From NCBI GenBank assembly GCA_964627505.1, contig CAZVKB010000006.1, forward strand, positions 1-54,099: a DNA stretch of 54,099 nucleotides, given 5' to 3'. A program made the translations under genes and the position numbers. The notes under the pieces were generated by a model. That model had not been told where the DNA came from and did not search any database. It was given only the letters and a program-made list of their open reading frames with translations. This stretch comes from an uncultured Actinomycetes bacterium (GTDB lineage Bacteria > Actinomycetota > Actinomycetes > S36-B12 > UBA10799). This document shows positions 56 through 51,486 of the stretch, one piece after another (the stretch's first letter is position 1; every line of letters starts with the position of its first letter).

Positions 56-775
56 AGTTTCCGAGCTTTCTGGGATCTGCTGATGTCTAGCGAACGGCAG
101 GACGAGTTGACCACGCTGATCAGCGATGTGTTGAGCCTGCCAGCCATCAACTCCCCTGGATCCCAACTTCGCGGCATCCTCACCGAATGGCTGGTCGCAG
201 GTGAGGCGGTGCAGCGCACAGTCGCGCAACTGTCCAAGCAGATGCGCCGCTTTCTTGATACGCAGGCCTATCTGGACAACCGACGGATCGCCGAGATCAT
301 CCACGACATCGAGGCCACTGCCCTCGATCTCCGCGACGATCCACCCACCGGCACCATCACGGACATCACCGAGTCCCGTGCCGCGATCAGTCTGCCCATG
401 ATGCGCACAATGTATCTGCCCACACGTGACACTCACCTCGACTCTGATTCCGTCACCACCGGCGATGCGGATTTCACCACCGGAGACCTCTTCAGTCAGA
501 TCGCGATCGACGTTCGAATGCTGCGCCGAACAGTGGATCGCGTGCTGGCTGAGCGAGATCAGGTGACATTGGCCGATGTGGTCGACTATCAACCACTTGA
601 ACTGGGTTTGGCGGAACTCACTGGCTATCTCAAGGTTGCCGATGATGATCCCGCAGCAGTCATTGACGACACTCGCCGGCAACGGATCAGCTGGGAGGCC
701 GACGGGGTGCAACGCTGCGCCGATGTGCCGATGGTGTTATTCACCCGCAACGACACGGGAGGTAGCCGTGGCTGA
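56..775 (+). pseudogene. jetA: 3' portion of Wadjet JetA (DUF3375), interrupted by IS
   Basis: The frame reads SFRAFWDLLMSSERQDEL...AGEAVQRTVAQLSKQMRRFLD...PLELGLAELTGYL, typical of the DUF3375 C-terminal half. It overlaps jetB. Homology continues upstream of the ATG at 83 and stops at the IS end. Confidence 0.8.
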
Positions 776-1376
776 TCCTGTGCTCGGGCAGGCTGTGGTG
801 CCGCTGTTGAAGGGGGTGGTCTATGCCGATACCCAGACGGCTGCGTGGGAGACCCTGCTGGTGATTCCAGCAGCGGTGCGCGACTACCTTTCGCACCTCG
901 GTCTTGATGTCATCATCGACGAGGCTGAAGGCTTCGCCTATCTCACACAGCGTGACCCCGACGAGGAGTCGGATGCTCCGGCTATCCCACGGCTGATTGC
1001 GCGCCGGCCGCTTTCGTTTCGCGTCACGCTCCTGTTGGCGCTGCTTCGTCGGGCGTTACTCGAACTCGATGTATCTGGTGATCAGACTCGGCTGGTGCTC
1101 ACTCGCGACCAACTGGTCGAACTTGTTCGCACCTATCACCCGGAACGACACAACGAAGCCAAGTTGACTGAGGCCGTGGAAACCGACGTGCGCAAAGTAG
1201 TCGAACTGGGGATGGCGCGGCCATTACGCGATCAACCCCACACCTACGAGGTGCGTCGGGTCCTAAAGGCCTTCGTGGACGCGCAATGGCTGGGCGAGGT
1301 GTCGCACAAGCTCGCGGCCCTCGTGGACGAGCACAACACCACAACAGGGGACACCACAACAGGGGGAATCACATGA
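768..1376 (+). CDS. jetB: Wadjet JetB (DUF4194)
   Basis: GTG at 768 after a GGAGG RBS. Sequence LLKGVVY...LGLDVIIDEAEGFAYL...RRPLSFRVTLLLALLR...YEVRRVLKAFVDAQWL. Lies between jetA and an SMC-like gene. Confidence 0.88.
   Translation: MADPVLGQAVVPLLKGVVYADTQTAAWETLLVIPAAVRDYLSHLGLDVIIDEAEGFAYLTQRDPDEESDAPAIPRLIARRPLSFRVTLLLALLRRALLELDVSGDQTRLVLTRDQLVELVRTYHPERHNEAKLTEAVETDVRKVVELGMARPLRDQPHTYEVRRVLKAFVDAQWLGEVSHKLAALVDEHNTTTGDTTTGGIT
1336..1365 (+). repeat. 15-bp perfect tandem duplication ACACCACAACAGGGG x2
   Basis: Read directly at 1336-1350 and 1351-1365, at the jetB 3' end and jetC RBS. Confidence 0.9.
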
Positions 1377-4300
1377 CCTACACCCTTGAGCTCGATCTCA
1401 CCGACGATCCGACCGAGTCCGGCTACCGACTCTCGCGACTCGAGGTGCTGAACTGGGGAACCTTCGACTCCCACATCTGGACGCTTCGGGCTGATCGCGG
1501 CACCACTCTGCTCACCGGAGATATCGGTTCGGGCAAGTCCACGTTGGTAGACGCCATCACCACGCTCTTAGTTCCTCCGGGCAAGGTCACCTACAACAAG
1601 GCCGCCGGGGCTGAGCACCGCGAACGTACGCTGAAGTCATACGTATTCGGTCACTTCAAGACCGAGCGGGCCGATGAGTTGCGAGCCGCCAAGGCGGTGG
1701 GTCTCCGCGACGAGCGTTCCTACAGTGTGCTGCTCGCCGTGTTCGCCAACGCCGCGCTCGGGCACACGGTGTCGATCGCGCAGGTGTTCTGGCACCGGGA
1801 AGCCAGCGAAGCAGTGCAGAAGATGTTTGTGGTGGCAGATGCCGATCTGACGATCGCGGTCGACTTCAGCAACTTCGGGGCCACTGTGAAGGAACTTCGC
1901 CGCCGCTTGCGCAACTCCGGCGCGGTGATCAACGACTCGTTCCCGCCCTATGCCAAGGAGTTCCGCCGACGACTGGGTATTGACAACCCCCAGGCGATGG
2001 AGTTGTTCGGGCAGACGGTGTCGATGAAGTCCGTGGGCAACCTCACCGAATTCGTGCGCTCGCACATGCTCGAGCCGTTCGACGCCGACGACCGGATCAA
2101 CAACCTCATCGACCATTTCAACGACCTCATGCGGGCTCACGAGTCGGTGGTGAAGGCCAAGCGCCAGGTAGAACAACTCGAACCCATCGTCAACGAACTC
2201 GACACCTACGACTCGGTCGTGGCTGAGCGGCTACACCATGAAGCGATTCGCGACGGATTGGCCCGGTATGTAGCCGGGCGCAAGGTCGCGCTGCTCGATG
2301 GCCGACTCGCCATGACTGCGGCTGAGCAGGTAGTGGTCGCGGCGGACGAGGCACGTTTGCGCGCACGCGAAGACGCGTTGCGCGACGAGGAGAGCGACTT
2401 GCGCGATGCCATCAATCGCAGCGGCGGCGATCGCCTCGCCGGGATGGAACGCGAACGCGAACGAGCCGCACAGCTCCGTGCGGCCCAACGGATTCGCCGC
2501 TCAGATTACGAGCGGGTATGTGCCGCGTCGGAATGGCAACCGGCCGACGACGCAGCGGCTTTGGCGGCGCAAGTGAGTGCGGCCGCGGCCGAGGTGGACA
2601 CAATCGAGTCCCGTCGGGTGGAACTGGGCAACGAACAGACTGAACGGCAAGTAGCCCGACGCGATCTCGGTGTTGAGTTAGCAGGGGTGCAGGACGAATT
2701 GCGCAGTCTGGCCGAGCGCGACACCAACATCGACGCCCGGATGGTGGCCATGCGACAAGGCATGTCCGCTACCTGTGGGCTACGCGAAACCGACCTGCCA
2801 TTTATCGGTGAGCTGCTGCGCGTCAACGACGAGGCGTGGCGCGGGGCCGCTGAACGTGTCCTCCGGGGTTTCGGCCTGTCGATGCTGGTACCCGACGCAC
2901 ACTATGCGACGGTGGCCGACTGGGTGGACACCAACAATCTGCACGGACGTCTGGTGTATTACCGAGTGCGTGGCATTCCCACCGCGCCAGGAGTCACGGA
3001 CGATCGCTCGCTGGTGTGGAAACTCGACGTCAAGGCAGACTCCCCCTTCGCGGATTGGGTGGAGGCATCCTTGGCCAAGCGCTTCAACATCGTCTGCGCA
3101 ACTACATCCGCGGAGTTCCGCCACGCCGAGGATGCCCTCACCATTCGCGGCCAGGTTAAACGTGGCCGCGAGCGCCACGAAAAGGATGACCGTTCAGCCA
3201 TCGACGATCGCAGTCGATGGGTGCTCGGCTGGGATAACGCCGACAAACGCCGGCATGTGCAGGGCTTGCGGGATTCACTGACCACCAGAATCCGGGACCT
3301 CGACAACCGATTGGCCACCACAGTCGCGCAATTGCACCGCCTTGATGCCCGACGCGACAATTTGCGGGAACTGCAACGGTTCACGGACTTCACGGAGCTG
3401 GACTGGCAGAGCACGGCAGCCGATATCGCCCGGATGGATCGCGAGATCGCCGCGCTGCGCGAAGCCAGCGACGTCCTGCGTGAGCTCAACGCGCAACTGG
3501 AACGCGTGCGCTCTGACGCTGCGTCCACCCGGGCACAGATCACCGAGGTGCAAGGCCAACAAGCCCGCCTGGAGGCTCGCCGGGAGGGCGACGAGAGCAT
3601 CCGTCGGCGGCTGCTCGAGCGCTTTCCGGATCTGCTGCCGCTCGCGACGGGTGCCACGTCCGCCGCAACCGGACCCGTAGCCGATGCCGCAGCCGCTGTT
3701 GCCGGATACCTCGCCTCTGCACTCCCAAGCGGCGTGGAACCGACCGAACCCGAAGCCTGGGACGATGTTCGCGATAGTGCCATCGAACAGCTCAACACGC
3801 GTGTGAGCCGACTGGAAGACAAGGCTCGTCGGTTAGCCGCCCAGATCGTGCGAAAAATGGGGGAATTCCGCACCGAATGGCCGCTCGACACGCAAGAACT
3901 CGACACTTCCACCGAGGCTGGAAAAGACTATCGCGCGCTGTTGGGGCAACTGCGCAGTGACGATCTCCCGCGCTTCGAGCAAAACTTCAAGGAGATGCTC
4001 AACGAAAACGCCATCCGTGAGGTGGCATCGTTACAAGCCATGTTGCGCACCGCGCAGGATCAGATTCGGCGCCGCGTGGAGATCATCAATGAGTCACTGG
4101 CCGACATCGACTACCAGCCCCACACGTACATCCGGTTGGAGTCCGAACCAGCCACCGATGCCGACATCCGCACATTTCGCGCGGAGTTGCGGGCGTGCAC
4201 CGAGGATTCCCTCGGCGGCTCGGACTCCGACGACCACATGTATTCCGAGCAGAAGTTCCTCCAGGTCAAACAGATCGTGAGCCGGCTCAAGGGTCGCGAC

Positions 4301-4792
4301 GGTTCCGCCGAAGAGGACCGTCGGTGGCACGCGAAGGTCACCGATGTGCGCACCTGGTTCACCTTCGCAGCCAGCGAGCGCGTGCGCGCCGACGACAGCG
4401 AATATGAACACTACTCAGACTCCGGCGGCAAATCCGGCGGGCAGAAAGAGAAACTTGCCTACACGATTTTGGCAGCGTCTTTGGCGTATCAGTTCGGGCT
4501 GGTGAGTCATGCCACGCAGTCCAAAACATTCCGCTTCGTGGTGATCGACGAAGCTTTTGGCCGTGGCTCGGATGAGTCGGCGCGATTCGGCCTGGAATTG
4601 TTCAAACGTTTGGGACTGCAACTGCTCGTTGTCACGCCGCTGCAGAAGATTCATGTGATTGAACCGTTTGTCACCAGGGTCGGTTTCGTCTACAACGACA
4701 GCGGCCAAACCTCACGACTGGCGACGCTCACTATCGAGGAGTACCGCGAGGGAGTTCGGACCAGCCGGGACGAGCAGATGGCACGGCGGTGA
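1373..4792 (+). CDS. jetC: Wadjet JetC, SMC/MukB-like ATPase
   Basis: ATGA overlap with jetB. RLEVLNWGTF, Walker A GDIGSGKST, YNKAAGA, long coiled coil, signature SGGQK, Walker B VVIDEAF. Confidence 0.92.
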   Translation: MTYTLELDLTDDPTESGYRLSRLEVLNWGTFDSHIWTLRADRGTTLLTGDIGSGKSTLVDAITTLLVPPGKVTYNKAAGAEHRERTLKSYVFGHFKTERADELRAAKAVGLRDERSYSVLLAVFANAALGHTVSIAQVFWHREASEAVQKMFVVADADLTIAVDFSNFGATVKELRRRLRNSGAVINDSFPPYAKEFRRRLGIDNPQAMELFGQTVSMKSVGNLTEFVRSHMLEPFDADDRINNLIDHFNDLMRAHESVVKAKRQVEQLEPIVNELDTYDSVVAERLHHEAIRDGLARYVAGRKVALLDGRLAMTAAEQVVVAADEARLRAREDALRDEESDLRDAINRSGGDRLAGMERERERAAQLRAAQRIRRSDYERVCAASEWQPADDAAALAAQVSAAAAEVDTIESRRVELGNEQTERQVARRDLGVELAGVQDELRSLAERDTNIDARMVAMRQGMSATCGLRETDLPFIGELLRVNDEAWRGAAERVLRGFGLSMLVPDAHYATVADWVDTNNLHGRLVYYRVRGIPTAPGVTDDRSLVWKLDVKADSPFADWVEASLAKRFNIVCATTSAEFRHAEDALTIRGQVKRGRERHEKDDRSAIDDRSRWVLGWDNADKRRHVQGLRDSLTTRIRDLDNRLATTVAQLHRLDARRDNLRELQRFTDFTELDWQSTAADIARMDREIAALREASDVLRELNAQLERVRSDAASTRAQITEVQGQQARLEARREGDESIRRRLLERFPDLLPLATGATSAATGPVADAAAAVAGYLASALPSGVEPTEPEAWDDVRDSAIEQLNTRVSRLEDKARRLAAQIVRKMGEFRTEWPLDTQELDTSTEAGKDYRALLGQLRSDDLPRFEQNFKEMLNENAIREVASLQAMLRTAQDQIRRRVEIINESLADIDYQPHTYIRLESEPATDADIRTFRAELRACTEDSLGGSDSDDHMYSEQKFLQVKQIVSRLKGRDGSAEEDRRWHAKVTDVRTWFTFAASERVRADDSEYEHYSDSGGKSGGQKEKLAYTILAASLAYQFGLVSHATQSKTFRFVVIDEAFGRGSDESARFGLELFKRLGLQLLVVTPLQKIHVIEPFVTRVGFVYNDSGQTSRLATLTIEEYREGVRTSRDEQMARR

Positions 4793-6018
4793 CTCCAACC
4801 AGGGCCCAGCCCACGCACGGCGGCGCCGCATCCGGTCGGATCTGGACCACTCCGGCGATGGTGCGTCAGCGTGTGGCCAAATCGTGGGACAGCGGCCGAC
4901 TGCTGGCCAGCCTGGTTGTCGGCGAAAGCGCAACCGATGACGCTGAAGAAGCCGACACTTTTCCGCTGCGGATCGCGCTCACCGGACCTCGCGGCGCGGA
5001 TCTCGCTGCGCGCTGGACGGAGTGTCGCGACTGGGTGCGCAGTCATGAGAACGCTGGCGGTTACCGTATCGAATGGCGTGAGGTGAACGACCGCACTCTT
5101 GGACGCCAGCGATTGCCTGCCGCGGCCTGGCTCGACACGATCGACGACGCAGCCGCTTTGTGCGGAGTGCGGCGGGACTTGACGCGATTCCGCTCCGCGC
5201 TGACTGAGACACCCACGAACTTGCACGACTGGGTGCGTGCACATCCGAGGAAAGTTCTGGACGTGGGCGAGGACTGGCCGCTGCTCATCGACGTGGTTGA
5301 GTGGTTGGCGGAACATCCTCAGCCAAAGGTGTATCTGCGCCAGGTGGAGGTACCTGGCGTGCACACAAAGGTGATCGAAACACATCGCCGCACCATCGCG
5401 TCCATGGCTGATGCAGTGGGGATCCCCAGCGTTGCCGCCGACGGCCACGGCTGGTTCGAACGGCGATATGGCTTCCTCACAAAACCCGCGATGGTGCGAT
5501 TTCGGCTGCTCGACAGTTCTGCCCGGCTGCTGCCCGGCGTGACTGAGATGACGCTGCGGGTGACGGAGGCGGCGCACCTGCGGCCAGCGGTCAGCCGCGT
5601 ATTTGTAGTGGAGAATGAGATCAATTACCTCAGCTTTCCAGAAGTCGCAGAGGCCATGGTGATCTTTGGCCAGGGAAACGAAGCGCCCTCTGTTCTGCAA
5701 GGTTTACCGTGGCTGAGCGATGCGACAGCGTTTTACTTCGGCGATCTCGACACGCACGGCTTCGCCATTCTCGACCGCGTGCGGGTGGTGTTGCCCGAAG
5801 TGCAAAGTCTGCTGATGGACAGACGGACGCTGCTGGCCCACCGCCACGCGTGGACCATTGAACCCCAGCAGTCAACCCACGACATGGTCCATCTCACAGG
5901 TCAGGAACGTGAGGTGGTCGAGTTGTTGCGCAGCAATGAACTCGGCCCGGGAGTGCGCTTGGAACAAGAACGCATCGGTTGGCAGTGGCTGCGCGACGGC
6001 GTAGCCAGGTGCGGGTAG
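4789..6018 (+). CDS. jetD: Wadjet JetD, Toprim nuclease (DUF3322 + DUF2220)
   Basis: GTGA overlap with jetC. YLRQVEVPGVHTKVIE, VVENEINYL, YFGDLDTHGFAIL (Toprim DxD), RLEQERI. Confidence 0.92.
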   Translation: MTPTRAQPTHGGAASGRIWTTPAMVRQRVAKSWDSGRLLASLVVGESATDDAEEADTFPLRIALTGPRGADLAARWTECRDWVRSHENAGGYRIEWREVNDRTLGRQRLPAAAWLDTIDDAAALCGVRRDLTRFRSALTETPTNLHDWVRAHPRKVLDVGEDWPLLIDVVEWLAEHPQPKVYLRQVEVPGVHTKVIETHRRTIASMADAVGIPSVAADGHGWFERRYGFLTKPAMVRFRLLDSSARLLPGVTEMTLRVTEAAHLRPAVSRVFVVENEINYLSFPEVAEAMVIFGQGNEAPSVLQGLPWLSDATAFYFGDLDTHGFAILDRVRVVLPEVQSLLMDRRTLLAHRHAWTIEPQQSTHDMVHLTGQEREVVELLRSNELGPGVRLEQERIGWQWLRDGVARCG

Positions 6019-7642: not shown

Positions 7643-7694
7643 AACCCGCGGCGCAACGAGATGCTAAAGCGCGTGCAGGGTTCATACTGGCAAG

Positions 7695-10600
7695 GTGTCT
7701 ATTGCCAGTGATTCGATCAATCTCACACGTGTGCACCCGACTGCGGCGGCCAACAGCGATACCTCCCCCGCGCAGCAACCGCCCCCCTTCCCCGGCGTGC
7801 CCACTGTCATCAACGGCAACGGGGCCATCGCGCATGTGATGAGTCATGTGTGCGGCGGTGTCATCGGTTACCCGATCACCCCCTCCACCGAAATCTCGGA
7901 ACTTTTTGAAGCTGCCCGCGCCGAAGGTGGTCGCAACGTCTGGGGTCGCCATCCGTTCTTCTTCGAGCCCGAAGGGGAACACTCGGCGCAGAGCGGGGCT
8001 TTGGGCGCCGCCCTCACCGGCGGTCAATTCATCTCCAACGCATCGTCCAGCCAAGGAATTCTGTATGCGATGGAATCCCACTATGTGACGGTGGGTAAGA
8101 AAGTCGGGGGTTTCGTGCTGCAGGTGGCTGCACGGGTGGTCTCCAAGCACTCGTTGAACGTGATGGCTGGCCACGATGATGTCTACGCCCTGCTCTCCGC
8201 CGGCTACACCGTTCTGTTCGGTTCCAATCCGCAAGAAGCCGCAGATCTCGCCGCCATCGCCTACCGCACCTCGGCGCTGTCGTTGATCCCAGTGGCCAAC
8301 GCCATGGACGGTTTCGCCACCAGCCACATGCTCAGCGAGGCCAACCTGCCCGAACCCGAGTTGCTGCGCACCTACTTGGGTGACCCAGCCGGTCGCATCC
8401 CCTGCCCCACGCTGGCCCAGGAACTCCTCTTCGGCGCCAAGGGCCGTGTGTTCCAACTCCAGAACTATCTCGAACGACACCGCGATGATTTCTATCTCGC
8501 TGACTACGCCGCACTCTCGGAGCACCTGAAAACCCATGCCGTTGCGATCGAATCCGATAATGACGGGAATCTCATCGAGTCCACGCTCGGGTGGGTTCCG
8601 GAGGAGTTGCACGGCCAATGGCACCGCCAGTGGCGCAACGCTTTCGAACGTGGCACCCGCCAACTTGTTCCTGCGTTGGTCGACGTCAACGCCCCCGGCC
8701 TGACCGGTCCCGTGCAGAACCAGCCCGACTTCCAGGCCGGTGCAGCCGATCACCGGACCCATTTCGCCAGCGCTGTGCCCGCACTCACCCGTGAGGCGAT
8801 GGCCGAATACTCTGCGCTCACCGGCCGGACCTACTCCCCCATCCACGCCTACGACTGTGCTGATGCGGACTTCATCATGGTCGGCCTCGGTTCGATCACC
8901 GATGATGTCCGCGCCGTCCTGCCCTACCTGCGGGCCCAGGGGTACAAAGTCGGCGTGGTCTCAGTGAAAATGCTGCAGCCGTTCCCGGAGGCCGACCTGG
9001 TGGCCGCGTGCGCGAACGCCAAAGCGATCACCGTCTTGGAGCGCTCAGACCAGACCGCCCTCAGCAGTCTTGTCACCCAAGCCCTGTTCAAGGCCCGCGC
9101 TAACCACGAAGCGCAGCAGCGCGGAGACAACGACCAATACGACGATATTCCGGCGCTGTCCGCCACACCCAAACTCACCACGGCGATCTTCGGCCTCGGC
9201 GGTCACGATGTGCAACCGCGCCACCTCATCGCCGCCTTCCAGAATATGGCCGACGGCGGCAACGCCCCGCTGATCTACCTTGGATCACAGTTCTTCGATG
9301 AGCACCCCAACTCACACGTTGCCGAAATTCAAGAACGGTTACGGGCGGCGTATCCAGAGACCGAAGTGATGGCGCTGACCACGCAGCCCAACCCGTCGCT
9401 GCTGCCACCCGAAGCGCTGCGAATTCGTTTCCACTCCGTCGGCGGCTACGGCACCATCGCCACCGGCAAACTGCTCACCGACATCCTCGCCGGAGTGCTG
9501 GATATGCATTCGAAGTCGGCGCCGAAATATGGCTCAGAGAAGAGCGGCGCCCCCACCAACTACTACATCACGCTCAGCCCCGAACCGGTGCTGATCACCA
9601 ACGCGGAACTCGAAGATGTGGAAGTAGTGATCTCGCCCGATCACCGTGCGTTCATCCACGCCAACCCGCTCAAGGGGCTGGTCGATGGCGGCACGTTCAT
9701 TCTGCAGTCCAGTCTGAGCCCGCTGCAGGTCTGGCGGGAATTGCCCCGCCACGCCCGCCGCACCATCCGCGAGCGGCACCTGCACTTCCTGGTGGTCGAT
9801 GCTTTTGCCGTGGCCAAGCGGCATGCGCCGACTGCCGATTTGGAAACCCGGATGATGGGCATCGCGTTCATCGGCGCTGTTGTGGGGCACGTGGATCGCG
9901 TTGTGCGGGGGGCGTCGGAGGCGGCCATCGCGGAGAAAGTACGGGCTCAGATCGCCAAGAAGTTCGGGGCCAAAGGTGCTGCGGTCATCGAAGGCAACAT
10001 GTCTGTGATCTCTGACGGCATCACGGCCACCCAGAATGTCGATTACGACGCTCCGGAGTTTCGGGCTATCGATGACGAGGCGCCGATGCTCGTGCCGTTG
10101 GATGTGAGCTTGTCAGCCTCGATGTGCGCAACTTCCGCAAGCACGGCCGGCCTCTTCGATCCCGCATACTACGAAGACATCATGGCGCGGCCATTTCGCG
10201 AGGGCACCATCAGCGAAGCGCCGGTGCTTCCCGGGGTGGGGCTCTTCATGCCGCCTGGGAGCGCAGCCGGCAAAGACAAGGGATTGTTTCGTCGCACCGT
10301 CCCGGACTTCGACTTCAGCACCTGCACCGGCTGCATGGAATGTGCACTGGCCTGCCCCGACGCGGCCATCCCGAACATCGTCGCGGAAATTCCGGACCTG
10401 CTGCTGACCGGCATCGCCGAACTCGACATCCCCGATCGGCAGCGGGATGCGTTGCGGGCTTTGGTCTATCCGCTGTCCGAGCAGGTGCGCGAGGTGTACC
10501 GGCAAGACAAGACGCCGCGGCCCTTCCATGAGGCGGTTGCATCCGCGTTGGCGAGCCTGCCCGGGGTGCGTCCAGAGGACCAGCCCACACTCGCCCACAA

Positions 10601-12866
10601 TCTTGAGCGCCTCGTCACAGTGCTGGCTACGTTTCCGGTGGCGCGCACTCGACCGTTCTTTGACGCGATGGAGCGGACCGTCCCAGGTACCGGTGCCATG
10701 TTCGCCGCCACGATCGATCCGTGGAAGTGCACCGGGTGCCTCGAGTGCATCGACGTCTGCGGGCCGGGTTCGTTGACTCCCCTGGATCAGGATGACGACG
10801 TTCTCACAACTCTGCGCACGCGCTTCGAGTTCGCCACCGAACTTCCCAACACGCCCGCCCGTTTCCGCACCGACGCCACTAGCGTGGACGGCGATCTCAA
10901 GCGCCTCATGCTCGACCGGCACAACTACTACTCCACCAGCGGCGGGCACGGTGCCTGTCGCGGCTGTGGCGAGGTCACCGCGATTCGGTTGGTGATGGCC
11001 ACCGGCCACGCGCTCGGTGAGCAGCATCGGGCGGCGCATCTGCATCACCTGGCCGAACTCACCGCGGGGCTCGAGACCAAAATCGCCACACTAACCGCGC
11101 AGTCGACCACAACGGAGACCCAGTCCGCAGCCGCCGAACGCGTCGCTCGACTCACCGAACTGCGGGACGTGCTGGAACGTCGCCTGTACGACTATGAAGG
11201 CGGTGCCACGGGCAACGGGCCCGCGCCGATGATCGTGGCCAACGCGACGGGGTGCAGCAGCGTCTACGCCTCCACCATGCCCTACAACTCCTACTTGGAC
11301 CCGTGGGTGAACAGCCTCTTCCAAGACAGTGCGCCGTTGGCGAAGGGCATTTTTGAAGGTATCGCCGCCCAAACTGCGCCAGATGTGCGGGCGATGCGAA
11401 TCGCCGAACTGGAACTCGCCGACTCCTATTCGCCGCCTGCCGACCGGGCAACCGAGGGTGCAGGGAACGCGGATGATGCCAGCCAACTCGACCGCCAATT
11501 GCGAATGTTGTCGTGGTCGGAGTTCTCTCCTGACGAACTCACACTGCTGCCCACTGTGCTGACGATCGGCGGTGATGGCGCAAATTACGACATCGGCTTC
11601 GGGGCAATGTCGCGGATTCTGGCCAGCGACACTCCGATCAAGATGTTGGTGCTGGACTCCGGTGCTTACTCCAACACCGGCGGCCAAGCTTCCACCGCAA
11701 GTTTCACGGGCCAGGACTCGGACCTGGCGCGATTCGGCGGTGCACACGCCGGCAAGCACGAGGGTCGTAAGGAACTCGCCCTGCTGGCGTCATTTCACCC
11801 CAACGTTTTCGTGTGCGCCACCAGCACCGCGATGCACGGGCAGTTTTTGGCCGCCACGATGGAGTTCTTGTCCTATCCCTCGGCACCGGGCGTTATGAAC
11901 GTCTACACCCCGTGCGGTTCCGAACATGGCATCCCGGAGGCATCGTCGAATGCGCGGGCTCGGCTGGCGGTGGAAAGCCGCATGCACCCGTTGTTCGTGC
12001 ACGATCCACGCCGCGGCACCACCCTGCACGACCGGTTCTCGCTCGACGGCAACCCCGACCCGGGCCAACCCTGGACCACCAGCACGCTGGAATACCTCGA
12101 TGACAACGGCGAAGTAGCGCTGCTGGACACCGCGCTGACGCCTGCCGAGTTTGCACTGGGCGAGGTGCGGTTCAAAAAGCAGTTCCGCCGACTGCACGCT
12201 GCGGAGGAGGACATTGGCCTGCCCATGGCGGAGTTCATCGAACTCGGCCCGGAACAGCGTGCAGCCCACATGCCCTTCATCTACGCCACGGATGACGACC
12301 GCCATCTGATCAAAGTGGCGTGCTCGGCATCGATCGTCGCGCTTGTGGACGATCGGCGGCGCTACTGGCAGACGTTGCAGTACCTCTCCGGTGTGCACGA
12401 GGCGCAATTGACTGCCGTGCACCACGACGAACTAGCCGCCTTGCGCGCACAGTACGAAGAAGCCGCAGCTGCCCGGGAATCGTCCTTGGATGACATTGCG
12501 CGGGCGATGGCTGAGCTGGCCACGGCGAGCCAAGCGCCAGCCGGACCTGCACCGTCGATGGGTTTCGGCGGCGCACCTGTGGGGGCCGCTGCGGCCACTG
12601 TGGGCGCACCGGGCGCAGCACCTGCGGCCGAATCACACGCCCCGATCTACATCGACCCAGCCGAAGAAGCCCTGTGCAACGATTGCGGCACGTGCTACCA
12701 GGAGTTACCCCAGTTCTTCACGAAAACCACTGTGGTGATCGACGGCGAGGCGCGCGTGATAGCACGGGCGATTCCAGGCGCCGCCGAAAGTGTCGAGATC
12801 ACCCCCGAGATCGCCAAGCGGATCGACCGGGTCCGCGCCACCTGCGACGCGGAGATCATCCGATGA
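7695..12866 (+). CDS. Single-chain pyruvate (2-oxoacid):ferredoxin oxidoreductase, NifJ/PFOR type, with extra C-terminal ferredoxin domain
   Basis: YPITPST; gamma domain GGYGTIATGK and KYGSEKSG; CTGCMECALACP and CTGCLECIDVC; GACRGCGE; NATGCSSVY; TPP motif GGDGANYDIG; YSNTGGQAS; C-terminal CNDCGTC...C. Confidence 0.9.
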   Translation: MSIASDSINLTRVHPTAAANSDTSPAQQPPPFPGVPTVINGNGAIAHVMSHVCGGVIGYPITPSTEISELFEAARAEGGRNVWGRHPFFFEPEGEHSAQSGALGAALTGGQFISNASSSQGILYAMESHYVTVGKKVGGFVLQVAARVVSKHSLNVMAGHDDVYALLSAGYTVLFGSNPQEAADLAAIAYRTSALSLIPVANAMDGFATSHMLSEANLPEPELLRTYLGDPAGRIPCPTLAQELLFGAKGRVFQLQNYLERHRDDFYLADYAALSEHLKTHAVAIESDNDGNLIESTLGWVPEELHGQWHRQWRNAFERGTRQLVPALVDVNAPGLTGPVQNQPDFQAGAADHRTHFASAVPALTREAMAEYSALTGRTYSPIHAYDCADADFIMVGLGSITDDVRAVLPYLRAQGYKVGVVSVKMLQPFPEADLVAACANAKAITVLERSDQTALSSLVTQALFKARANHEAQQRGDNDQYDDIPALSATPKLTTAIFGLGGHDVQPRHLIAAFQNMADGGNAPLIYLGSQFFDEHPNSHVAEIQERLRAAYPETEVMALTTQPNPSLLPPEALRIRFHSVGGYGTIATGKLLTDILAGVLDMHSKSAPKYGSEKSGAPTNYYITLSPEPVLITNAELEDVEVVISPDHRAFIHANPLKGLVDGGTFILQSSLSPLQVWRELPRHARRTIRERHLHFLVVDAFAVAKRHAPTADLETRMMGIAFIGAVVGHVDRVVRGASEAAIAEKVRAQIAKKFGAKGAAVIEGNMSVISDGITATQNVDYDAPEFRAIDDEAPMLVPLDVSLSASMCATSASTAGLFDPAYYEDIMARPFREGTISEAPVLPGVGLFMPPGSAAGKDKGLFRRTVPDFDFSTCTGCMECALACPDAAIPNIVAEIPDLLLTGIAELDIPDRQRDALRALVYPLSEQVREVYRQDKTPRPFHEAVASALASLPGVRPEDQPTLAHNLERLVTVLATFPVARTRPFFDAMERTVPGTGAMFAATIDPWKCTGCLECIDVCGPGSLTPLDQDDDVLTTLRTRFEFATELPNTPARFRTDATSVDGDLKRLMLDRHNYYSTSGGHGACRGCGEVTAIRLVMATGHALGEQHRAAHLHHLAELTAGLETKIATLTAQSTTTETQSAAAERVARLTELRDVLERRLYDYEGGATGNGPAPMIVANATGCSSVYASTMPYNSYLDPWVNSLFQDSAPLAKGIFEGIAAQTAPDVRAMRIAELELADSYSPPADRATEGAGNADDASQLDRQLRMLSWSEFSPDELTLLPTVLTIGGDGANYDIGFGAMSRILASDTPIKMLVLDSGAYSNTGGQASTASFTGQDSDLARFGGAHAGKHEGRKELALLASFHPNVFVCATSTAMHGQFLAATMEFLSYPSAPGVMNVYTPCGSEHGIPEASSNARARLAVESRMHPLFVHDPRRGTTLHDRFSLDGNPDPGQPWTTSTLEYLDDNGEVALLDTALTPAEFALGEVRFKKQFRRLHAAEEDIGLPMAEFIELGPEQRAAHMPFIYATDDDRHLIKVACSASIVALVDDRRRYWQTLQYLSGVHEAQLTAVHHDELAALRAQYEEAAAARESSLDDIARAMAELATASQAPAGPAPSMGFGGAPVGAAAATVGAPGAAPAAESHAPIYIDPAEEALCNDCGTCYQELPQFFTKTTVVIDGEARVIARAIPGAAESVEITPEIAKRIDRVRATCDAEIIR

Positions 12867-15625
12867 CCGCCGGTGTTGAGCAGTCCACCCCACCCTCGCC
12901 GGAGCAGGCGGTGCTCGATCACCAGGCGGCTCTGCTCAAGCGCCGACTGCAGGCAGATCCGCGGGCTTTCCGGGACCTGTTCATTTCCGAAGGTGCCGCG
13001 GCGGTCGGCTGGGAGTTTGCGCAGCCGGAACTCAGCGATGGTTTTGTGCGCACCATGTGGGACACCCTCTCCCGAGGTGATGACAGCAGCACTGTGCTGA
13101 TGCGGTTCGTGTGGAACCTGCCGCTGGGGGGCAAGCGTAAGTTCATCCGCGGACTCGACCGCTGCCTCGCCGATCGCTATCCGATGTTTGCCGGGCTATC
13201 GGTGAACTGGCCGGCGAACAACGGTATCGAACCGTTCGTGCGCGATGCCGAGGCGCGCGCGCACGATTTCGACCTGGTCAATCAGGGTTATCTGGGATAT
13301 CTGGAGCAGGGGTACACCGCCCGCGACGTCGATCTGTTCGTGTGGCTAGAGGTGTTGCGGGACAAGCAGTGTGAGGAACGGCCCTGCGAATTGGGGGTGT
13401 TCCTCGCCGATCATCGCGAACCTACAGGCGGTTGCCCGGTGCAGATTCACATTCCGAAGATCTTGGAACGCATCGGCACCGGCAAGTTCTCCGAAGCTCT
13501 GGAACTGTTGGAATCCAGCAACCCTTTGCCGGATGTCACCGGCCGAGTGTGTCCGCAGGAGTTGCAGTGCCAGGGCGTGTGCTTGCTGAAGACTCCAATC
13601 GCGATCGGCCAGCTCGAGTGGTTTTTGCCGCAACGGGAAAAACTTGTCCATCCCGAGGGCGATGCCGTGCGTTTTGCTGGTCTCCCCGATCCGTGGCAGG
13701 AGGCTGCCCACGCCCCGGTGGCGATTGTCGGTTCCGGGCCGTCGGGCCTGATCAACGCATATCTGTTGGCGGCGCAGGGCTACCCGGTGACAGTGTTCGA
13801 GGCGTTCCACGCGCTCGGTGGGGTGCTGCGCTACGGCATTCCGGAGTTCCGCTTACCCAACGACCTGATTGACGACGTGGTGGCACGGATCCGAGCCTTG
13901 GGCGGAAAGTTTGTCCTCAACTTCGTCGTCGGTAAGACTGCCACCTTGCAGGATCTGCGAGACGCCGGGTTTGCCCACATCTTCGTCGGCACCGGCGCCG
14001 GACTGCCGCGGTTCATGAACGTCCCCGGCGAGCACCTGCTGAACGTGATGTCGGCCAACGAATTCCTCACCCGGGTCAATCTGATGCAAGGGCGCCGGGC
14101 TGACTTCGCCACCCCGCTGCCCGAGACAGATGGCAAGCAGGTGCTCGTGATCGGCGGCGGAAACACCGCGATGGATGCCGCCCGGACCGCGCGTCGGCTC
14201 GGTGGCATCGTGACCATCGTCTACCGGCGCACGCAGGCTGAGATGCCCGCCCGGCTGGAGGAACTCCATCACGCGCTGGAGGAGGGCATCGCGGTTGCCG
14301 AACTGCTGTCCCCGTTGGAGTTCCTGGGAAATGATCACGGGTTTGTCACCGCGGCCACGCTGGATGTGATGGAACTCGGTGAGCCCGATGAGTCGGGTCG
14401 GCGGCGTCCGCTGGCCACTGGCCGGACCGAGGTGCGGCGCGCCGATTTGGTGATCATGGCTTTGGGCAACGACGCCAACCCGATCATCAAAGACTCAGAA
14501 CCCAGGTTGGCTACCTCGAAGTGGGGCACGATCAACCTCGATCACCGTGGCTCGCAGGAGACGACGGTGCCTGGGGTATTCACCGGAGGTGATGCCGCGC
14601 GGGGTGGGTCCACAGCGATTCTGGCTGCGGGTGACGGGCAGTCGGCGGCGCGCGAATTGTTGGCATTGCCCGAGTTGCCGCCAGCAGAAGTGGCAGCCGC
14701 GGTGGCGCGGGCGCGGGAGTTCTCCGACGTGGCCGCAGGTGCCCAAACCATCGTGGGCAAGGTGGAATTGTCGCCGGGGATCGTGGAGTTCACGGTGCGC
14801 TCGCCGTTGATCGCCCGAACGGCACAGGCTGGGCAATTTGTGCGAGTCTTGCCGACCCCGGACGGAGAACTGATCCCGCTGACCCTGGCCGACTGGGATG
14901 CCCAGGCCGGCACCATCTGTCTGGTGGTGCAGGGTGTGGGTGCCAGCAGCATCGAGATCAATCAGATGACAGTCGGTGCGGCGTTCACCGGGATTGCCGG
15001 GCCGCTAGGACGTCCGAGCGACATCACCCGCACGGCGGAAGGTGCCACAGTCGTGTTCACGGCTGGCGGCTTAGGCCTGCCGCCGGTCTACCCGATCATG
15101 CGGGAACACTTGCGCCAGGGAAACCACGTGACGCTGATTGCGGGCTTCCGCACGGCCGAGTTGATGTTCTGGACCGATCCCCACGAGCGCATCGGGCAGT
15201 TACAGGCGACGTACGGCGATGCGCTGGACGTGGTGTACACGACCAATGACGGTTCGTTCGGGGTGGCGGGATTCGTTACCGATCCCTTGCGCAGCAAGCT
15301 CGCGGCCGACGACTCTGCGACTCGGCCGGTTGCCGAAGTTGTGACGATCGGGCCGCCGGTGATGATGCGGGCGGTGAGCGACCTCACGCGCGAGTTCGGC
15401 ACCCCATGTGTGGCCAGCCTGAACTCGATCATGGTGGATGCCACCGGTATGTGTGGCGCGTGCATGGTGCCGGTGGTCGTCGATGGCCGGATCGTGCGCA
15501 AACACGCGTGCATCGACGGGCCAGAACTCAATTCGCACATCATCGATTGGGATAAGTTCCTCCCCCGCTTCGGCCTGTTCCGGGATCAGGAACACGAGAG
15601 CTTGGTGCGACACGGTTTGGCCTGA
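12863..15625 (+). CDS. Fused NfnB(SudA/GltD-like)-NfnA(SudB/PyrK-like) NAD(P)H:ferredoxin oxidoreductase
   Basis: ATGA overlap with PFOR. GCPVQIHIP, TGRVCPQELQCQGVC, GSGPSG, YGIPEFRLP, GGGNTAMDAARTA, VYRR, then AGQFV, GPLG, GGLGLPPVYP, IGPPVMM and MVDATGMCGAC...CIDGPE. Confidence 0.85.
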   Translation: MTAGVEQSTPPSPEQAVLDHQAALLKRRLQADPRAFRDLFISEGAAAVGWEFAQPELSDGFVRTMWDTLSRGDDSSTVLMRFVWNLPLGGKRKFIRGLDRCLADRYPMFAGLSVNWPANNGIEPFVRDAEARAHDFDLVNQGYLGYLEQGYTARDVDLFVWLEVLRDKQCEERPCELGVFLADHREPTGGCPVQIHIPKILERIGTGKFSEALELLESSNPLPDVTGRVCPQELQCQGVCLLKTPIAIGQLEWFLPQREKLVHPEGDAVRFAGLPDPWQEAAHAPVAIVGSGPSGLINAYLLAAQGYPVTVFEAFHALGGVLRYGIPEFRLPNDLIDDVVARIRALGGKFVLNFVVGKTATLQDLRDAGFAHIFVGTGAGLPRFMNVPGEHLLNVMSANEFLTRVNLMQGRRADFATPLPETDGKQVLVIGGGNTAMDAARTARRLGGIVTIVYRRTQAEMPARLEELHHALEEGIAVAELLSPLEFLGNDHGFVTAATLDVMELGEPDESGRRRPLATGRTEVRRADLVIMALGNDANPIIKDSEPRLATSKWGTINLDHRGSQETTVPGVFTGGDAARGGSTAILAAGDGQSAARELLALPELPPAEVAAAVARAREFSDVAAGAQTIVGKVELSPGIVEFTVRSPLIARTAQAGQFVRVLPTPDGELIPLTLADWDAQAGTICLVVQGVGASSIEINQMTVGAAFTGIAGPLGRPSDITRTAEGATVVFTAGGLGLPPVYPIMREHLRQGNHVTLIAGFRTAELMFWTDPHERIGQLQATYGDALDVVYTTNDGSFGVAGFVTDPLRSKLAADDSATRPVAEVVTIGPPVMMRAVSDLTREFGTPCVASLNSIMVDATGMCGACMVPVVVDGRIVRKHACIDGPELNSHIIDWDKFLPRFGLFRDQEHESLVRHGLA

Positions 15626-25615: not shown

Positions 25616-26392
25616 GTGTTCGCGTTTCTGCTGCGCCCGAAGTGGGTGATCTTCACAGTGCTCGTGCCCGTGGGCATGGTGCTGTGTCTGCTGGCTGCTG
25701 ATTGGCAATATGACCGCCATGTGGCACGCAGCGCGATGAATGTGCAGGTGGACGCCAGTTCCGCAGCAGCAGCGGCCCCAATTTCCGAACTGATGCCCCC
25801 GGGTGAGTCTTTTCCGAGTGAAGTTGAGTATCGCACCGCTGCCGCCGTTGGCACATTTGTCGGCCCCGATGTGTTGGTGCGCAAACAAGTCCTCGACAGC
25901 GCCCCCGGCTATTGGGTGGTCAATGCCCTGCGCACAGAATCTGGTGCGGTGTTGCAAGTCCTACGCGGGTGGGTTCCCCTGGGTGATAACGCCCGTACGA
26001 GTCCTTCCGTCCCTGCACCGCCCACGGGGCAAGTCACGGTGGTCGGCTGGCTCGCGCCATCGCAGACTATGCCGAACCCGGCGCCCACTGATCTCCCCCC
26101 GGGACAGGTGGTGGCCTTGGACACAGCCGTGTTAGCTGCTGGCCAAGTTACCTACCCGGCATATCTGGTGGCCACCGCGATGGATCCGGCGGATGCCGCA
26201 GGTCTCAAACCGGTTCCGGTCCCCCGCCCCGGTTTCGGTCCGCACCTGGCCTACTCCTGGCAATGGATCTTTTTTGCCTTGCTCCTCCCGGTTGGCTGGG
26301 TGCTGATGGTGCGCCGGGAAATCAAAGAGAGCGCCGAAGAACGTGAACAATCCCCGTCACGTGCACAGAGCTCACATGCGGCATCATCATGA
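25616..26392 (+). CDS. SURF1 family protein
   Basis: FLLRPKW, WQYDRH, GYWVVNAL, RGWVP, GPHLAYSWQWIFF. Confidence 0.9.
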   Translation: MFAFLLRPKWVIFTVLVPVGMVLCLLAADWQYDRHVARSAMNVQVDASSAAAAAPISELMPPGESFPSEVEYRTAAAVGTFVGPDVLVRKQVLDSAPGYWVVNALRTESGAVLQVLRGWVPLGDNARTSPSVPAPPTGQVTVVGWLAPSQTMPNPAPTDLPPGQVVALDTAVLAAGQVTYPAYLVATAMDPADAAGLKPVPVPRPGFGPHLAYSWQWIFFALLLPVGWVLMVRREIKESAEEREQSPSRAQSSHAASS

Positions 26393-48994: not shown

Positions 48995-50911
48995 GTGTCC
49001 GCTTCCTGCCACGACGGAGCGACCGGTGATCCGGGACTAACCTCAGCCCCCCGAGTTGCGCTGATCGGCGCCCCGAACGCGGGCAAGACCACATTGTTCA
49101 ATCAGCTCACCGGGCTGCGCGCCAAGACCGCCAACTATCCAGGGGTCACAGTCACCCGCCGCACCGGCACCGCGGTGGTAGATGACGCAACGGTGATCAT
49201 CGACGACTTGCCTGGCACGTATAGCTTGGTGCCCGTCAGCCCAGATGAGGAAGTCGTGGCCGACGCGCTTGCTGGCAGATTGGCCGGAGTTCCCGCTCCG
49301 GATGCCATTCTCGTGGTCGCCGATGCCACCACGATGTCGCGGTCGCTGATCCTGGTCGCCCAGGCGTTGCAGTTGGGTCTGCCCGCATGTGTGGTGATCA
49401 CGATGACCGATGAACTCCAGGAGCGTGGCGGCCGACTCGACATCATCCGGTTGCAGTCAATCCTCGGGGTGCCGGTGGTGGGAGTGGTCGGCACCAAGGG
49501 CATCGGCGTCCACACGGTGCGCGATCTGTTGGTAGCACCTGCGACCTGGCCAATTCCAGCACTGCGACCACCGGCAGACCTGGCGCAGCGCAGCGCTTGG
49601 ATCGACTCGGTGCTGGAGTCCGTGCTGTTTCAGGCGCCGCGCGAACACGCCTGGACCCGCCGAATCGATCGACTTCTGCTGCACCCTGTGGCCGGAGTGG
49701 TGATCTTCATCGGCGTCATGGTGGCGTTCTTTCAAATCATCTTCAGCTGGGCGGTGCCGGCGCAGGACGCTATCGAAGCGGCCTTGAGTTGGTTGTCGGC
49801 CGAGGTCACGCAGCGGGTGGCATGGGAGCCGCTGGCCAGCCTGCTCACCGATGGCGTGATCGGCGGCGTGGGCACGGTACTGACATTTATCCCCCAGATC
49901 TTCCTGCTGTTTCTGGTGATTTCGTTCCTGGAAAATGTGGGCTACATGTCGCGGGCGGCCTTCGTGATGGATCGGGTGATGGGCTCGATCGGGTTGGAGG
50001 GCCGAAGTTTTGTCTCGCTGTTGTCGTCCTATGCCTGTGCCATCCCGGGCATCATGTCGACCCGGACGATCCCATCTTCGCGCGACCGGATCGCGACCAT
50101 CCTGGTGGCGCCGCTGATGACTTGCTCGGCGCGGCTGCCTGTCTACACCTTGCTGATTTCCGCGTTTGTACCCAACGACCAGGTGTGGGGGCCGTTGTAC
50201 CTCCAAGGTTTGGTGCTGCTCGGGCTCTATCTGTTGGGTTCGGTGAGCGCTCTGCTGATCGCCGGCTTGCTCAAGCGCACTGCGCTACGGGCGAATGCGG
50301 CGCCTTTCTTCTTGGAAATTCCGCCCTATCGGGTACCGGGTTGGAAACTTGTGCTGCATCAGGTGTGGGACGCCATCCGATTCTTCCTGCGCAAAGCCGG
50401 GACCGTGATTTTACTCGCCTCGGTGGTGCTGTGGGGTTTGCTGCATGTACCGGTGGTGACCCCGCCCGCCGGCTTATCGCAGTCGGAGGCCACGAGTTAC
50501 CAACTAGAACACAGCGTTGCCGGCAGCATTGGGCGGGCAGTCGAGCCAGTATTCGCGCCTTTGGGGTTCAACTGGGAAATCAATGTGGGGCTGATTGCCT
50601 CTTTGTCCGCCCGGGAAGTATTCGTGTCCACCATGGGTCAGATCACAGCTGCTGAGGGCGATGATCAAGAATCGGTCGCCGCACAATTGCAGGGCCAGAC
50701 AAATCCGGACGGCACTCCGGTGTTCACCCCCGGCACAGTGGCCGCATTGCTGGTGTTTTTCGTTTTCGCCTTGCAGTGCATCTCAACGGTGGTGGTGATG
50801 AGACGGGAAACCAACTCACGGCGATGGCCGGCCATCGCGTTTGGATACATGTTTGCCTTAGCCTGGGTTTTGGGCTGGGTCGCCAATGTCACGGTGACGG
50901 CGTTGACATGA
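48995..50911 (+). CDS. feoB: Ferrous iron transport protein B
   Basis: GAPNAGKTT, NYPGVTV, DLPGTYSL, GYMSRAAF, CSARLP, AREVFV. Confidence 0.95.
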   Translation: MSASCHDGATGDPGLTSAPRVALIGAPNAGKTTLFNQLTGLRAKTANYPGVTVTRRTGTAVVDDATVIIDDLPGTYSLVPVSPDEEVVADALAGRLAGVPAPDAILVVADATTMSRSLILVAQALQLGLPACVVITMTDELQERGGRLDIIRLQSILGVPVVGVVGTKGIGVHTVRDLLVAPATWPIPALRPPADLAQRSAWIDSVLESVLFQAPREHAWTRRIDRLLLHPVAGVVIFIGVMVAFFQIIFSWAVPAQDAIEAALSWLSAEVTQRVAWEPLASLLTDGVIGGVGTVLTFIPQIFLLFLVISFLENVGYMSRAAFVMDRVMGSIGLEGRSFVSLLSSYACAIPGIMSTRTIPSSRDRIATILVAPLMTCSARLPVYTLLISAFVPNDQVWGPLYLQGLVLLGLYLLGSVSALLIAGLLKRTALRANAAPFFLEIPPYRVPGWKLVLHQVWDAIRFFLRKAGTVILLASVVLWGLLHVPVVTPPAGLSQSEATSYQLEHSVAGSIGRAVEPVFAPLGFNWEINVGLIASLSAREVFVSTMGQITAAEGDDQESVAAQLQGQTNPDGTPVFTPGTVAALLVFFVFALQCISTVVVMRRETNSRRWPAIAFGYMFALAWVLGWVANVTVTALT

Positions 50912-51486
50912 TCCGGATCGGTTCGCCCAAGGTGCGCTCAGCCAGTCCCCGGGTGCGGCTGCATGCCGAGTCGACAGCTGATCCGAGAGTGGTGCGCTGG
51001 GTGGTGCCCGCGGAGTGTGTGCGCAGCGTGGGACGTGTCACATGTGATGACGCAGACACCGATGTGCCGGCCGCCGTCCTCCAAGCGTTGGCAACTGGTG
51101 ACCTGACCCGAGTGTGCTTGACGGCGACGTCGATGGAGTGCGAAATCGCCGATCCTTCCCGTTGGCTGCACCTCGCACCGCTGATCAATGAGGCGCTCTT
51201 CACCTATCTGACGTCCGGTCACGTCCTGGCCTGTCAACGTTCAGACGCAGACGACGCCGCCCTCGCGAATGCAGTGGCAGAACTGGTGGCCGGAGATGTG
51301 ACCGACTACGCCACCAGCCATGGTGGAACTATCTCCTTGGTGGACGTTCGCAACGGGGTCGTCACGCTGCGACTCAGCGGTGCGTGCCGCGGCTGTCCGG
51401 CCGCGCAATCCACCATCACCGCGGGTATCGCCGCCAAACTCAACCCGAACTTGCCGCCGGTGGCCGGTTTTCGGGTGACCGACTGA
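50908..51486 (+). CDS. NifU/Nfu-family Fe-S carrier
   Basis: ATGA overlap with feoB. SHGG.I.LVDV, LSGACRGCPAA CxxC motif. Confidence 0.85.
   Translation: MIRIGSPKVRSASPRVRLHAESTADPRVVRWVVPAECVRSVGRVTCDDADTDVPAAVLQALATGDLTRVCLTATSMECEIADPSRWLHLAPLINEALFTYLTSGHVLACQRSDADDAALANAVAELVAGDVTDYATSHGGTISLVDVRNGVVTLRLSGACRGCPAAQSTITAGIAAKLNPNLPPVAGFRVTD

Follow-up and report, generated by a model that had tools for sequence, protein, structure and literature searches.

How might an actinobacterium that can respire oxygen pass electrons from pyruvate to NADP+ through two adjoining genes, with no separate ferredoxin gene beside them? The question is raised by a gene pair in a 54,099-nucleotide stretch of contig CAZVKB010000006.1 (assembly GCA_964627505.1), from an uncultured Actinomycetes bacterium; this whole stretch is called the window here. 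An earlier note on the DNA described a giant pyruvate:ferredoxin oxidoreductase (PFOR) coupled by ATGA to a single-chain Nfn-like protein, and both frames are indeed intact and overlap at 12863-12866. As the note also stated, the operon holds no free ferredoxin gene and a ferredoxin is fused to the PFOR. We find that the pair is a real, conserved two-gene cassette, in which an Nfn of a named class is paired with a hitherto undescribed, ferredoxin-bearing long PFOR. Judging from sequence, we give about an even chance that it reduces NADP+ with electrons from pyruvate and NADH, the fused ferredoxin serving as an internal shuttle. The cassette comprises the following elements.

7695-12866, plus strand: long one-subunit 2-oxoacid:ferredoxin oxidoreductase (PFOR type), 1723 aa, frame intact
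12863-15625, plus strand: fused Nfn of Pattern C (PRK12779), 920 aa, frame intact; N-terminal helical domain, NfnB/L-like part, then NfnA/S-like part
12863-12866, plus strand: ATGA overlap in the sequence, formed by the PFOR stop TGA and the Nfn start ATG; putative translational coupling

Conservation of the pair was examined in GTDB, where at least 590 stretches encode a relative; the best 80 were taken, mostly from Actinomycetota with several from betaproteobacteria. A long PFOR reaching the ferredoxin end lies directly 5' of Nfn in 79 of these 80 loci, and the remaining locus has only 135 bp of upstream DNA. Translational coupling, read by the earlier note from a single junction, extends to the family, with an in-frame ATGA or GTGA overlap in 69 of the 79 informative loci. 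An even sample of 401 Actinomycetes genomes yielded nine Nfn genes passing the Pattern C cut-off, one just under it, two frameshifted and one cut by a contig end. PFOR lies 5' of Pattern C in all 11 non-self loci of this sample that have upstream DNA (0 of 3 Pattern A control loci), and the PFOR tail occurs in 12 of the 401 genomes, every time directly before a Pattern C Nfn. Nine of 401 Pseudomonadota genomes carry both genes, adjacent to each other, eight of the nine being one tight clade and not independent. In the two samples the genes were always found together, except in one fragment at a contig end; a more distantly related long PFOR is part of an rnf operon. The GTDB loci and the two 401-genome samples may overlap, so that counts are not additive, and the actinomycete denominators of 401 and 151 genomes include unpublished G006, G029, G031, G035 and G042, all non-carriers. 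Co-occurrence, which the earlier note had named as a check, is thus near-strict: the genes are adjacent in 79 of 80 GTDB loci, in 12 of 12 Actinomycetes carriers and in the nine Pseudomonadota carriers.

The PFOR and Nfn trees largely match (patristic r 0.95, 55 pairs), and 26 of 37 supported PFOR splits recur in the Nfn tree. No third gene is conserved across the loci, the largest neighbour cluster being a generic ABC-type ATPase in 12 of 81. Covariation between the PFOR tail and the N-terminal/FeS part of Nfn did not exceed that with an NfnA control (14 of 13,924 versus 11 of 12,980 pairs above z 4), though 55 rows of mutual information are too few to weigh for or against contact. Carriers include Sulfuritalea and Accumulibacter metagenome-assembled genomes (MAGs) and the cultured Cellulomonas chitinilytica, Kineosporia spp. 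and Piscicoccus intestinalis. A few Actinomycetes have a canonical two-gene Pattern A nfnAB instead (L042:6665-8877, L043:5310-7531 and L044:6907-9089), the last beside separate subunit genes of a 2-oxoacid:ferredoxin oxidoreductase (OFOR).

The long PFOR has the layout of a one-subunit PFOR, and its best PDB match is 6CIN (E 6.6e-84). Pfam domains are POR_N, PFOR_II, POR, Fer4 and TPP_enzyme_C, together with a weak Fer4_15 match at residues 1658-1723 (E 2.4e-4, just under the cut-off). Domains I, II, III, V and VI lie in one chain, with the 12 cluster cysteines that make up three catalytic-chain [4Fe-4S] sites. All 58 aligned PFORs, namely the query and 57 intact loci of the 80, keep these 12 cysteines and four extra ones (1661, 1664, 1667 and 1717). 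T62, E95 and R147 align with T29, E62 and R112 of 6CIN, and N1327 is invariant; we take all four to serve binding of thiamine pyrophosphate (TPP) or substrate, and T62, R147 and N1327 to be shared by several OFORs. The additions to this core are as follows.

8442-8657, plus strand: 72-aa insertion (PFOR residues 250-321), in 10 of 10 Nfn-coupled PFORs aligned and not in the sole Rnf-coupled long PFOR, L155
10302-10769, plus strand: domain V, two CxxCxxCxxxC motifs (C877-887, C1012-1022) with a helical insertion of ~110 aa between them in the model; all eight Cys in 58 of 58
12393-12638, plus strand: predicted 45-residue helix (residues 1567-1611), then an Ala/Pro/Gly-rich disordered tether (1613-1648) with AlphaFold2 predicted local distance difference test (pLDDT) <50
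12639-12863, plus strand: C-terminal single-cluster ferredoxin (C1661, C1664, C1667, C1717) with a predicted beta-hairpin, folded in the model; Cys in 58 of 58, Fer4_15 E 2.4e-4

An AlphaFold2 model of PFOR residues 860-1723 (mean pLDDT 77.5), whose best fold matches are PFORs, displays the 45-residue helix, which a disordered linker of 36 residues joins to a separate small C-terminal domain; the ferredoxin is accordingly predicted to sit on a flexible arm. Spacing from the helix to the first cysteine is 45-64 aa in 53 of the 55 PFOR rows measurable by pattern. Atlas neighbours 3 and 4 of the ferredoxin domain carry Fer4_13 (scores 0.88-0.89), a lead only. The 72-aa insertion is a candidate partner-binding element. 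A 2026 review of PFORs (PMC13768988) describes domains I-VII and, in the parts covered, no ferredoxin-fused form; what is said here of this and other cited papers refers to the parts of each that were covered.

The Nfn scores 1562.5 bits against NF009415/PRK12779, over the cut-off of 1519, and matches NfnL at residues 188-598 and NfnS at 630-914, in B-A order on a single chain. Its AlphaFold model has a predicted template modelling score (pTM) of 0.83, with TM scores of 0.89 to 5JCA_L and 0.91 to 5JCA_S; pLDDT is <50 at 171-189, 231-239 and 858-866, and the model is cofactor-free, hence silent on iron binding by D167. Four regions concern us here.

12899-13222, plus strand: family-specific N-terminal helical domain, ~residues 13-120, five helices in the model
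13358-13618, plus strand: two-cluster domain, R166-D167-x2-C170-x4-C175, 15-aa spacer, C191, C230, C236, C240, E252
13850-14254, plus strand: region of the bifurcating flavin adenine dinucleotide (FAD) and NADP, with R330 (P. furiosus R201), R455-R456 and R464 (P. furiosus R333) from the 5JCA alignment
14744-15610, plus strand: NfnA/S-like FAD/NAD domain, with D859-x4-C864-x2-C867...C883 for [2Fe-2S]; ELIPLT for ERxPxT, Arg661 nearby

A profile-free search with Nfn residues 15-190 returned 91 matches; of ten inspected, nine were family members or misframed fragments and one was unrelated. Most Pattern C proteins have ~35 further aa ahead of the helical domain, an N-terminal stretch absent from this Nfn and its closest relatives (window 12863-12905).

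Residues were tallied over 194 distinct Pattern C strings (121 from the homologue search including the query, 1 from the profile-free search, 66 intact among the 80 loci and 6 from the 8 G loci), some of which are the same protein from two sources. The earlier note had pointed to Nfn-type bifurcation, and the bifurcation residues tested are retained in all 194. R330 and the second arginine, R464, are invariant; they correspond to P. furiosus R201, the arginine at N5 of the bifurcating FAD, and R333. The NADP arginine pair R455-R456 is kept in 193 of the 194. E252 aligns with E126, the proximal [4Fe-4S] glutamate, and the Asp/Cys3 [2Fe-2S] motif reads DATGMCG[A/S]C...C[I/V]DGPE (reference DGTGMCGxC...CV), both without exception. 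Two motifs depart from the reference in every string, the first of them a family-wide change that the earlier note did not remark on. At the motif RCx2Cx4Cx3CPV (PMC6405883), the family has RDx2Cx4C-x14/15/18-CPV, with Asp for the first Cys, at a position where two Pattern A controls keep RC in the alignment. At ERxPxT it has ELxPLT, with the Thr kept and Arg661 nearby in 191 of 194. From the ligand pattern of the fold, we presume that the cysteine replaced by D167 belongs to the distal, ferredoxin-facing cluster. Ferredoxin is predicted to dock at the distal cluster of Nfn (PMC6405883).

Under the reading we favor, TPP-dependent decarboxylation of pyruvate to acetyl-CoA would fill the three PFOR clusters with electrons. 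The tether would then let the C-terminal ferredoxin swing away from PFOR domain V and reach the distal cluster of Nfn, which appears remodelled by Asp in place of Cys, two short inserts and the extra helical domain. Finally, the NfnB-like FAD would confurcate these low-potential electrons with high-potential electrons from NADH, delivered via the NfnA-like FAD and [2Fe-2S] cluster. The net reaction would be pyruvate + CoA + NADH + 2 NADP+ -> acetyl-CoA + CO2 + NAD+ + 2 NADPH, and the pair might stand in for pyruvate dehydrogenase at low oxygen and high NADH. In favor of this scheme, both partners carry additions of their own (the N-terminal helices of Nfn and the 72-aa insertion of PFOR), and coupling between the two branches of P. 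furiosus NfnSL depends on the proximal glutamate (PMC9503767).

The more distant long PFOR, L155 (G787:C1), adds a comparison. Apart from those beside Nfn, the Pseudomonadota sample held this single long PFOR, with 1642 aa and 33% identity over 1429 aligned columns; rnfB lies upstream of it and rnfCDGEA-like genes downstream (L155:7331-17820). L155 has the same large insertions and ends in a C-terminal single-cluster ferredoxin, here Fer4_13; unlike the window PFOR it is without the 72-aa insertion, and its genome is without a Pattern C Nfn at E 1e-90. Because L155 sits in an rnf operon, the tethered design recurs beside a second ferredoxin-oxidising partner. This one example suggests that a PFOR with tethered ferredoxin is built for one fixed ferredoxin-oxidising partner, Rnf or Nfn, and the gene order suggests a counterpart of the Nfn module that would run from pyruvate to Rnf. 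No paper on a long PFOR inside an rnf operon was found in our literature search.

The host genome, 94.7% complete, has genes for pyruvate dehydrogenase (AceE), a heme-copper oxidase, cytochrome bd, acetate kinase and PntB. A host able to respire oxygen, as the earlier note implied, agrees with the two oxidases. No RuBisCO was found in the genome and no NiFe hydrogenase scored over the cut-off. A search for ATP-citrate lyase gave no match in the host, but this negative carries no weight, as no control genome matched either. The gene content fits an oxygen-respiring heterotroph with low-oxygen options, with autotrophy lacking support. PntB occurs in 22 of 25 carrier genomes (12 of 12 actinomycete) versus 111 of 151 background genomes; a link between PntB and the cassette was considered and dropped, the difference being too weak and the genomes too related. 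Two other OFOR loci are present. At G000:C27:12394-16998, as read from the open reading frames (ORFs), porC-porA-porB-like genes precede a gene for a GltD-like flavoprotein of 548 aa that ends in a two-cluster ferredoxin; the locus is a candidate for another 2-oxoacid:NAD(P)+ oxidoreductase, again with no free ferredoxin gene. The third OFOR (G000:C52:509-3428) consists of two-subunit korAB-type genes.

Several observations weigh against an NADH-coupled pyruvate:NADP+ reductase. The PFOR scores 386.4 bits against TIGR02176, below the cut-off of 911.35, which we attribute to its large insertions, and it has KDK where 6CIN has the EKR motif of the domain IV linker; because of this distance from the cut-off and the KDK, the substrate need not be pyruvate. 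None of the characterised Nfn motifs in PMC6405883 has the distal-cluster Asp or lacks the Arg of ERxPxT. In the same source, P. furiosus NfnII has the same fold and 70% identity yet is without NAD+-dependent activity, so motifs are no proof of bifurcation. Ten of the 37 supported PFOR splits conflict with supported Nfn splits, and the cassette is absent from two same-genus genomes, making it dispensable in the genus. A cell fermenting via the pair would need a large NADPH sink, and PntB is found in those 111 of 151 background genomes as well. Lastly, a free 108-aa ferredoxin is encoded elsewhere in the host genome (C8:33155-33481). The earlier note's term "self-contained" thus holds for the operon, where no ferredoxin gene adjoins the pair, but not for the genome. 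A bolder version of the proposal is that the two proteins join in one closed complex, an electron-confurcating pyruvate dehydrogenase that needs no free ferredoxin and contains TPP, two FADs, six [4Fe-4S] clusters, one [2Fe-2S] cluster, a swinging ferredoxin arm and a non-cysteine ligand on all three Nfn clusters; we regard it as tentative and rather doubtful. If it were true, the complex plus a membrane transhydrogenase run backwards would give NADH and proton pumping from pyruvate oxidation, and would be an actinobacterial counterpart of the PFOR-Rnf wiring in the sister enzyme.

The pair could instead be a dedicated but non-bifurcating pyruvate:NAD(P)+ oxidoreductase, in which the tethered ferredoxin reduces NADP+ (or NAD+) without obligatory coupling, an Asp-ligated or [3Fe-4S] distal cluster and an altered NfnA flavin site having relaxed it. 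Both substitutions, distal Cys to Asp and ERxPxT Arg to Leu, are universal among the 194 strings, NfnII provides a precedent (PMC6405883), and NfnSL with one ligand of its proximal cluster exchanged shows 40-45% uncoupled activity (PMC9503767). The potential of pyruvate, -515 to -540 mV (PMC13768988), would moreover let it reduce NADP+ downhill unaided. An uncoupled enzyme would nevertheless find needless what the family keeps invariant, that is, the high-potential branch with its FAD/NAD fold and Asp-ligated [2Fe-2S], the N5 Arg and the proximal Glu, and Arg661 (191 of 194) may stand in for the lost ERxPxT Arg; we consider this explanation unlikely, if a serious one. Operation mainly in reverse is less probable still: here Nfn would bifurcate electrons from NADPH to NAD+ and the tethered ferredoxin, driving acetyl-CoA carboxylation by an NADPH-driven pyruvate synthase for acetate assimilation or CO2 uptake. 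Nfn (PMC6405883) and PFOR (PMC13768988) are both reversible, the tether would keep the reduced carrier concentrated, the host has acetate kinase and PntB, and Sulfuritalea and Accumulibacter MAGs are among the carriers. The CO2 fixation offered as an alternative by the earlier note nonetheless finds no support in the host: neither RuBisCO, in a genome 94.7% complete, nor a NiFe hydrogenase scoring above the threshold was found, and the neighbours of the pair include no conserved gene for carbon fixation. Fe-S clusters tend to have a higher potential with an Asp ligand, which would disfavor CO2 reduction.

The same architecture might also serve another 2-oxoacid (2-oxobutyrate, branched-chain or aromatic), leaving pyruvate to the C27 porCAB-flavoprotein cluster. 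PFOR scores above no named NCBIfam cut-off, its residues after R147 differ from those of 6CIN (VVSKHSLNVMAG versus ALSTHALSIFG), the host genome has two other OFORs and substrate ranges overlap in the PFOR family (PMC13768988). Its best solved relatives by sequence and fold are one-subunit PFORs, however, and no amino-acid catabolic gene travels with the pair. The Thr/Arg/Asn triad, presumably acting at the TPP/substrate site, aligns with that of 6CIN, and we judge a different substrate to be improbable. Least credible to us is co-regulation only, each enzyme using the general ferredoxin pool with the fused ferredoxin as an optional extra carrier. The free ferredoxin in the host genome and the general lack of carrier selectivity of PFORs in vitro (PMC13768988) would permit it, but near one-to-one co-occurrence in two phyla, the conserved stop/start overlap and the partner-specific additions argue for a closer relation.

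Both halves of the cassette have well-studied relatives. The window Nfn shares with NfnAB/NfnSL (NfnI) of P. furiosus (5JCA) and Thermotoga maritima (4YLF) its folds, the N5 Arg and second Arg, the proximal Glu, the NADP Arg pair and the Asp-ligated [2Fe-2S]. It differs in the B-A fusion, the extra N-terminal helical domain, the distal Asp, a Cys spacer of 15 rather than 3 aa, the replaced ERxPxT Arg and the fixed PFOR neighbour. Likewise, the window PFOR shares the order I-II-III-V-VI, three cluster motifs and TPP/substrate residues with the one-subunit PFORs of Moorella thermoacetica (6CIN) and Desulfovibrio africanus (1B0P), but is ~500 aa longer, with several helical insertions, KDK for EKR and a fourth cluster in the tethered ferredoxin. 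The pyruvate:NADP+ oxidoreductase (PNO) of Euglena and Cryptosporidium is one chain with flavodoxin and cytochrome-P450-reductase-type domains; it is not bifurcating and has no Nfn. What PNO would share with the proposed pair is a pyruvate-to-NADPH path without free ferredoxin. EKR is the motif of linker domain IV in one-subunit PFOR (PMC13768988). In propionibacteria, the PFOR of the nifJ1 operon is co-transcribed with Nfn-like neighbours, and a ferredoxin-linked energy-conserving system was proposed (PMC7650540). As described there, the neighbours are two separate genes, one GltD-like with an extra ferredoxin site and one dihydroorotate-dehydrogenase-like with weak similarity to NfnA, and quinone is the proposed third partner. 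Having a different gene set, this operon was rejected as prior art for the pair.

Pattern C was recognized by Liang et al. 2019 (PMC6405883) as an uncharacterised fused-Nfn class and singled out as needing study. The class, typified by Mobiluncus curtisii ADI67453, is a single chain with a C-terminal NfnA-like part, longer than other fused Nfn and found in Actinobacteria and Proteobacteria. The window protein is the same, with a-FAD, NAD and [2Fe-2S] domains at the C-terminus and a length above that of Pattern B, and shows no family-level difference. The covered parts of that text make no mention of a PFOR partner, a distal Asp or a tethered ferredoxin for Pattern C; the legend of its Figure 2 has PFOR among the labelled nfn neighbours, and the organism concerned could not be seen. 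Poudel et al. (PMC6085437) treated the M. curtisii protein solely as a deep-branching Nfn, and the covered parts of PMC11494915 and PMC13689815 hold nothing specific to the pair. A full-text literature search, outside which most subscription papers lie, found no paper on the pairing of long PFOR and Pattern C or on an assay of either protein. The earlier note's remark that no characterised example was known therefore stands within that search, with the amendment that the Nfn half is already a named class.

A fixed PFOR partner gives Pattern C a direct assay, namely pyruvate + CoA + NADP+ with and without NADH. Were the pair confurcating, flavin-based bifurcation would extend to oxygen-respiring actinobacteria and betaproteobacteria, and the family would offer a naturally occurring Nfn whose ferredoxin-facing cluster has an Asp. 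It would also constitute a two-gene module making 2 NADPH per pyruvate at the expense of NADH, useful for redox engineering.

Start signals ahead of the cassette were compared with those of the host at large. The CATACT-6 nt-GTG arrangement read by the earlier note is present in the letters at 7683-7695.

7683-7688, plus strand: CATACT, candidate -10 element of a leaderless promoter, 6 nt 5' of the GTG at 7695

Among 1048 long host ORFs, TANNNT peaks 6-7 nt 5' of start codons (100 and 59 counts versus 1-15 at other spacings). The CANNNT peak is weak at this distance (63 and 53 versus 21-58 elsewhere), and the word also precedes 4% of internal ATG/GTG codons. Because TANNNT peaks sharply and CANNNT weakly 6-7 nt before host starts, a leaderless start is plausible for the PFOR gene. 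The site is not a family trait, with a comparable one in 2 of 61 homologue loci and a Shine-Dalgarno-like word in 20 of 61; no conserved operator or leaderless promoter was found among the homologue loci, and a sigma-70 scan found no promoter. Host-wide, 106 of the 1048 ORFs have TANNNT 5-7 nt ahead of their first start codon, versus 0.2% of internal codons, and from this spacing leaderless transcription looks common in the genome. Four RNA-library runs of one biofilm study contain scattered contigs over both genes and their neighbours alike; DNA is possibly present, and no listed contig bridges the junction.

The cassette is preceded by an MFS transporter gene and Wadjet-like genes and followed, after 33 bp, by a convergent MaoC gene. 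Of the two further host genes that the earlier note named, SURF1 is in the window at 25616-26392, and bacterioferritin had no match among the 28 + 8 window stretches domain-scanned, no search having been aimed at it. Directly 5' of the MFS gene, window positions 83-6018 hold a four-gene Wadjet/MksBEFG-like cluster (DUF3375, DUF4194/MksE, an SMC-like ATPase and DUF3322-JetD_C). Further downstream, feoB is followed by a NifU-domain gene (48995-51486), bringing together functions in iron uptake and Fe-S assembly.

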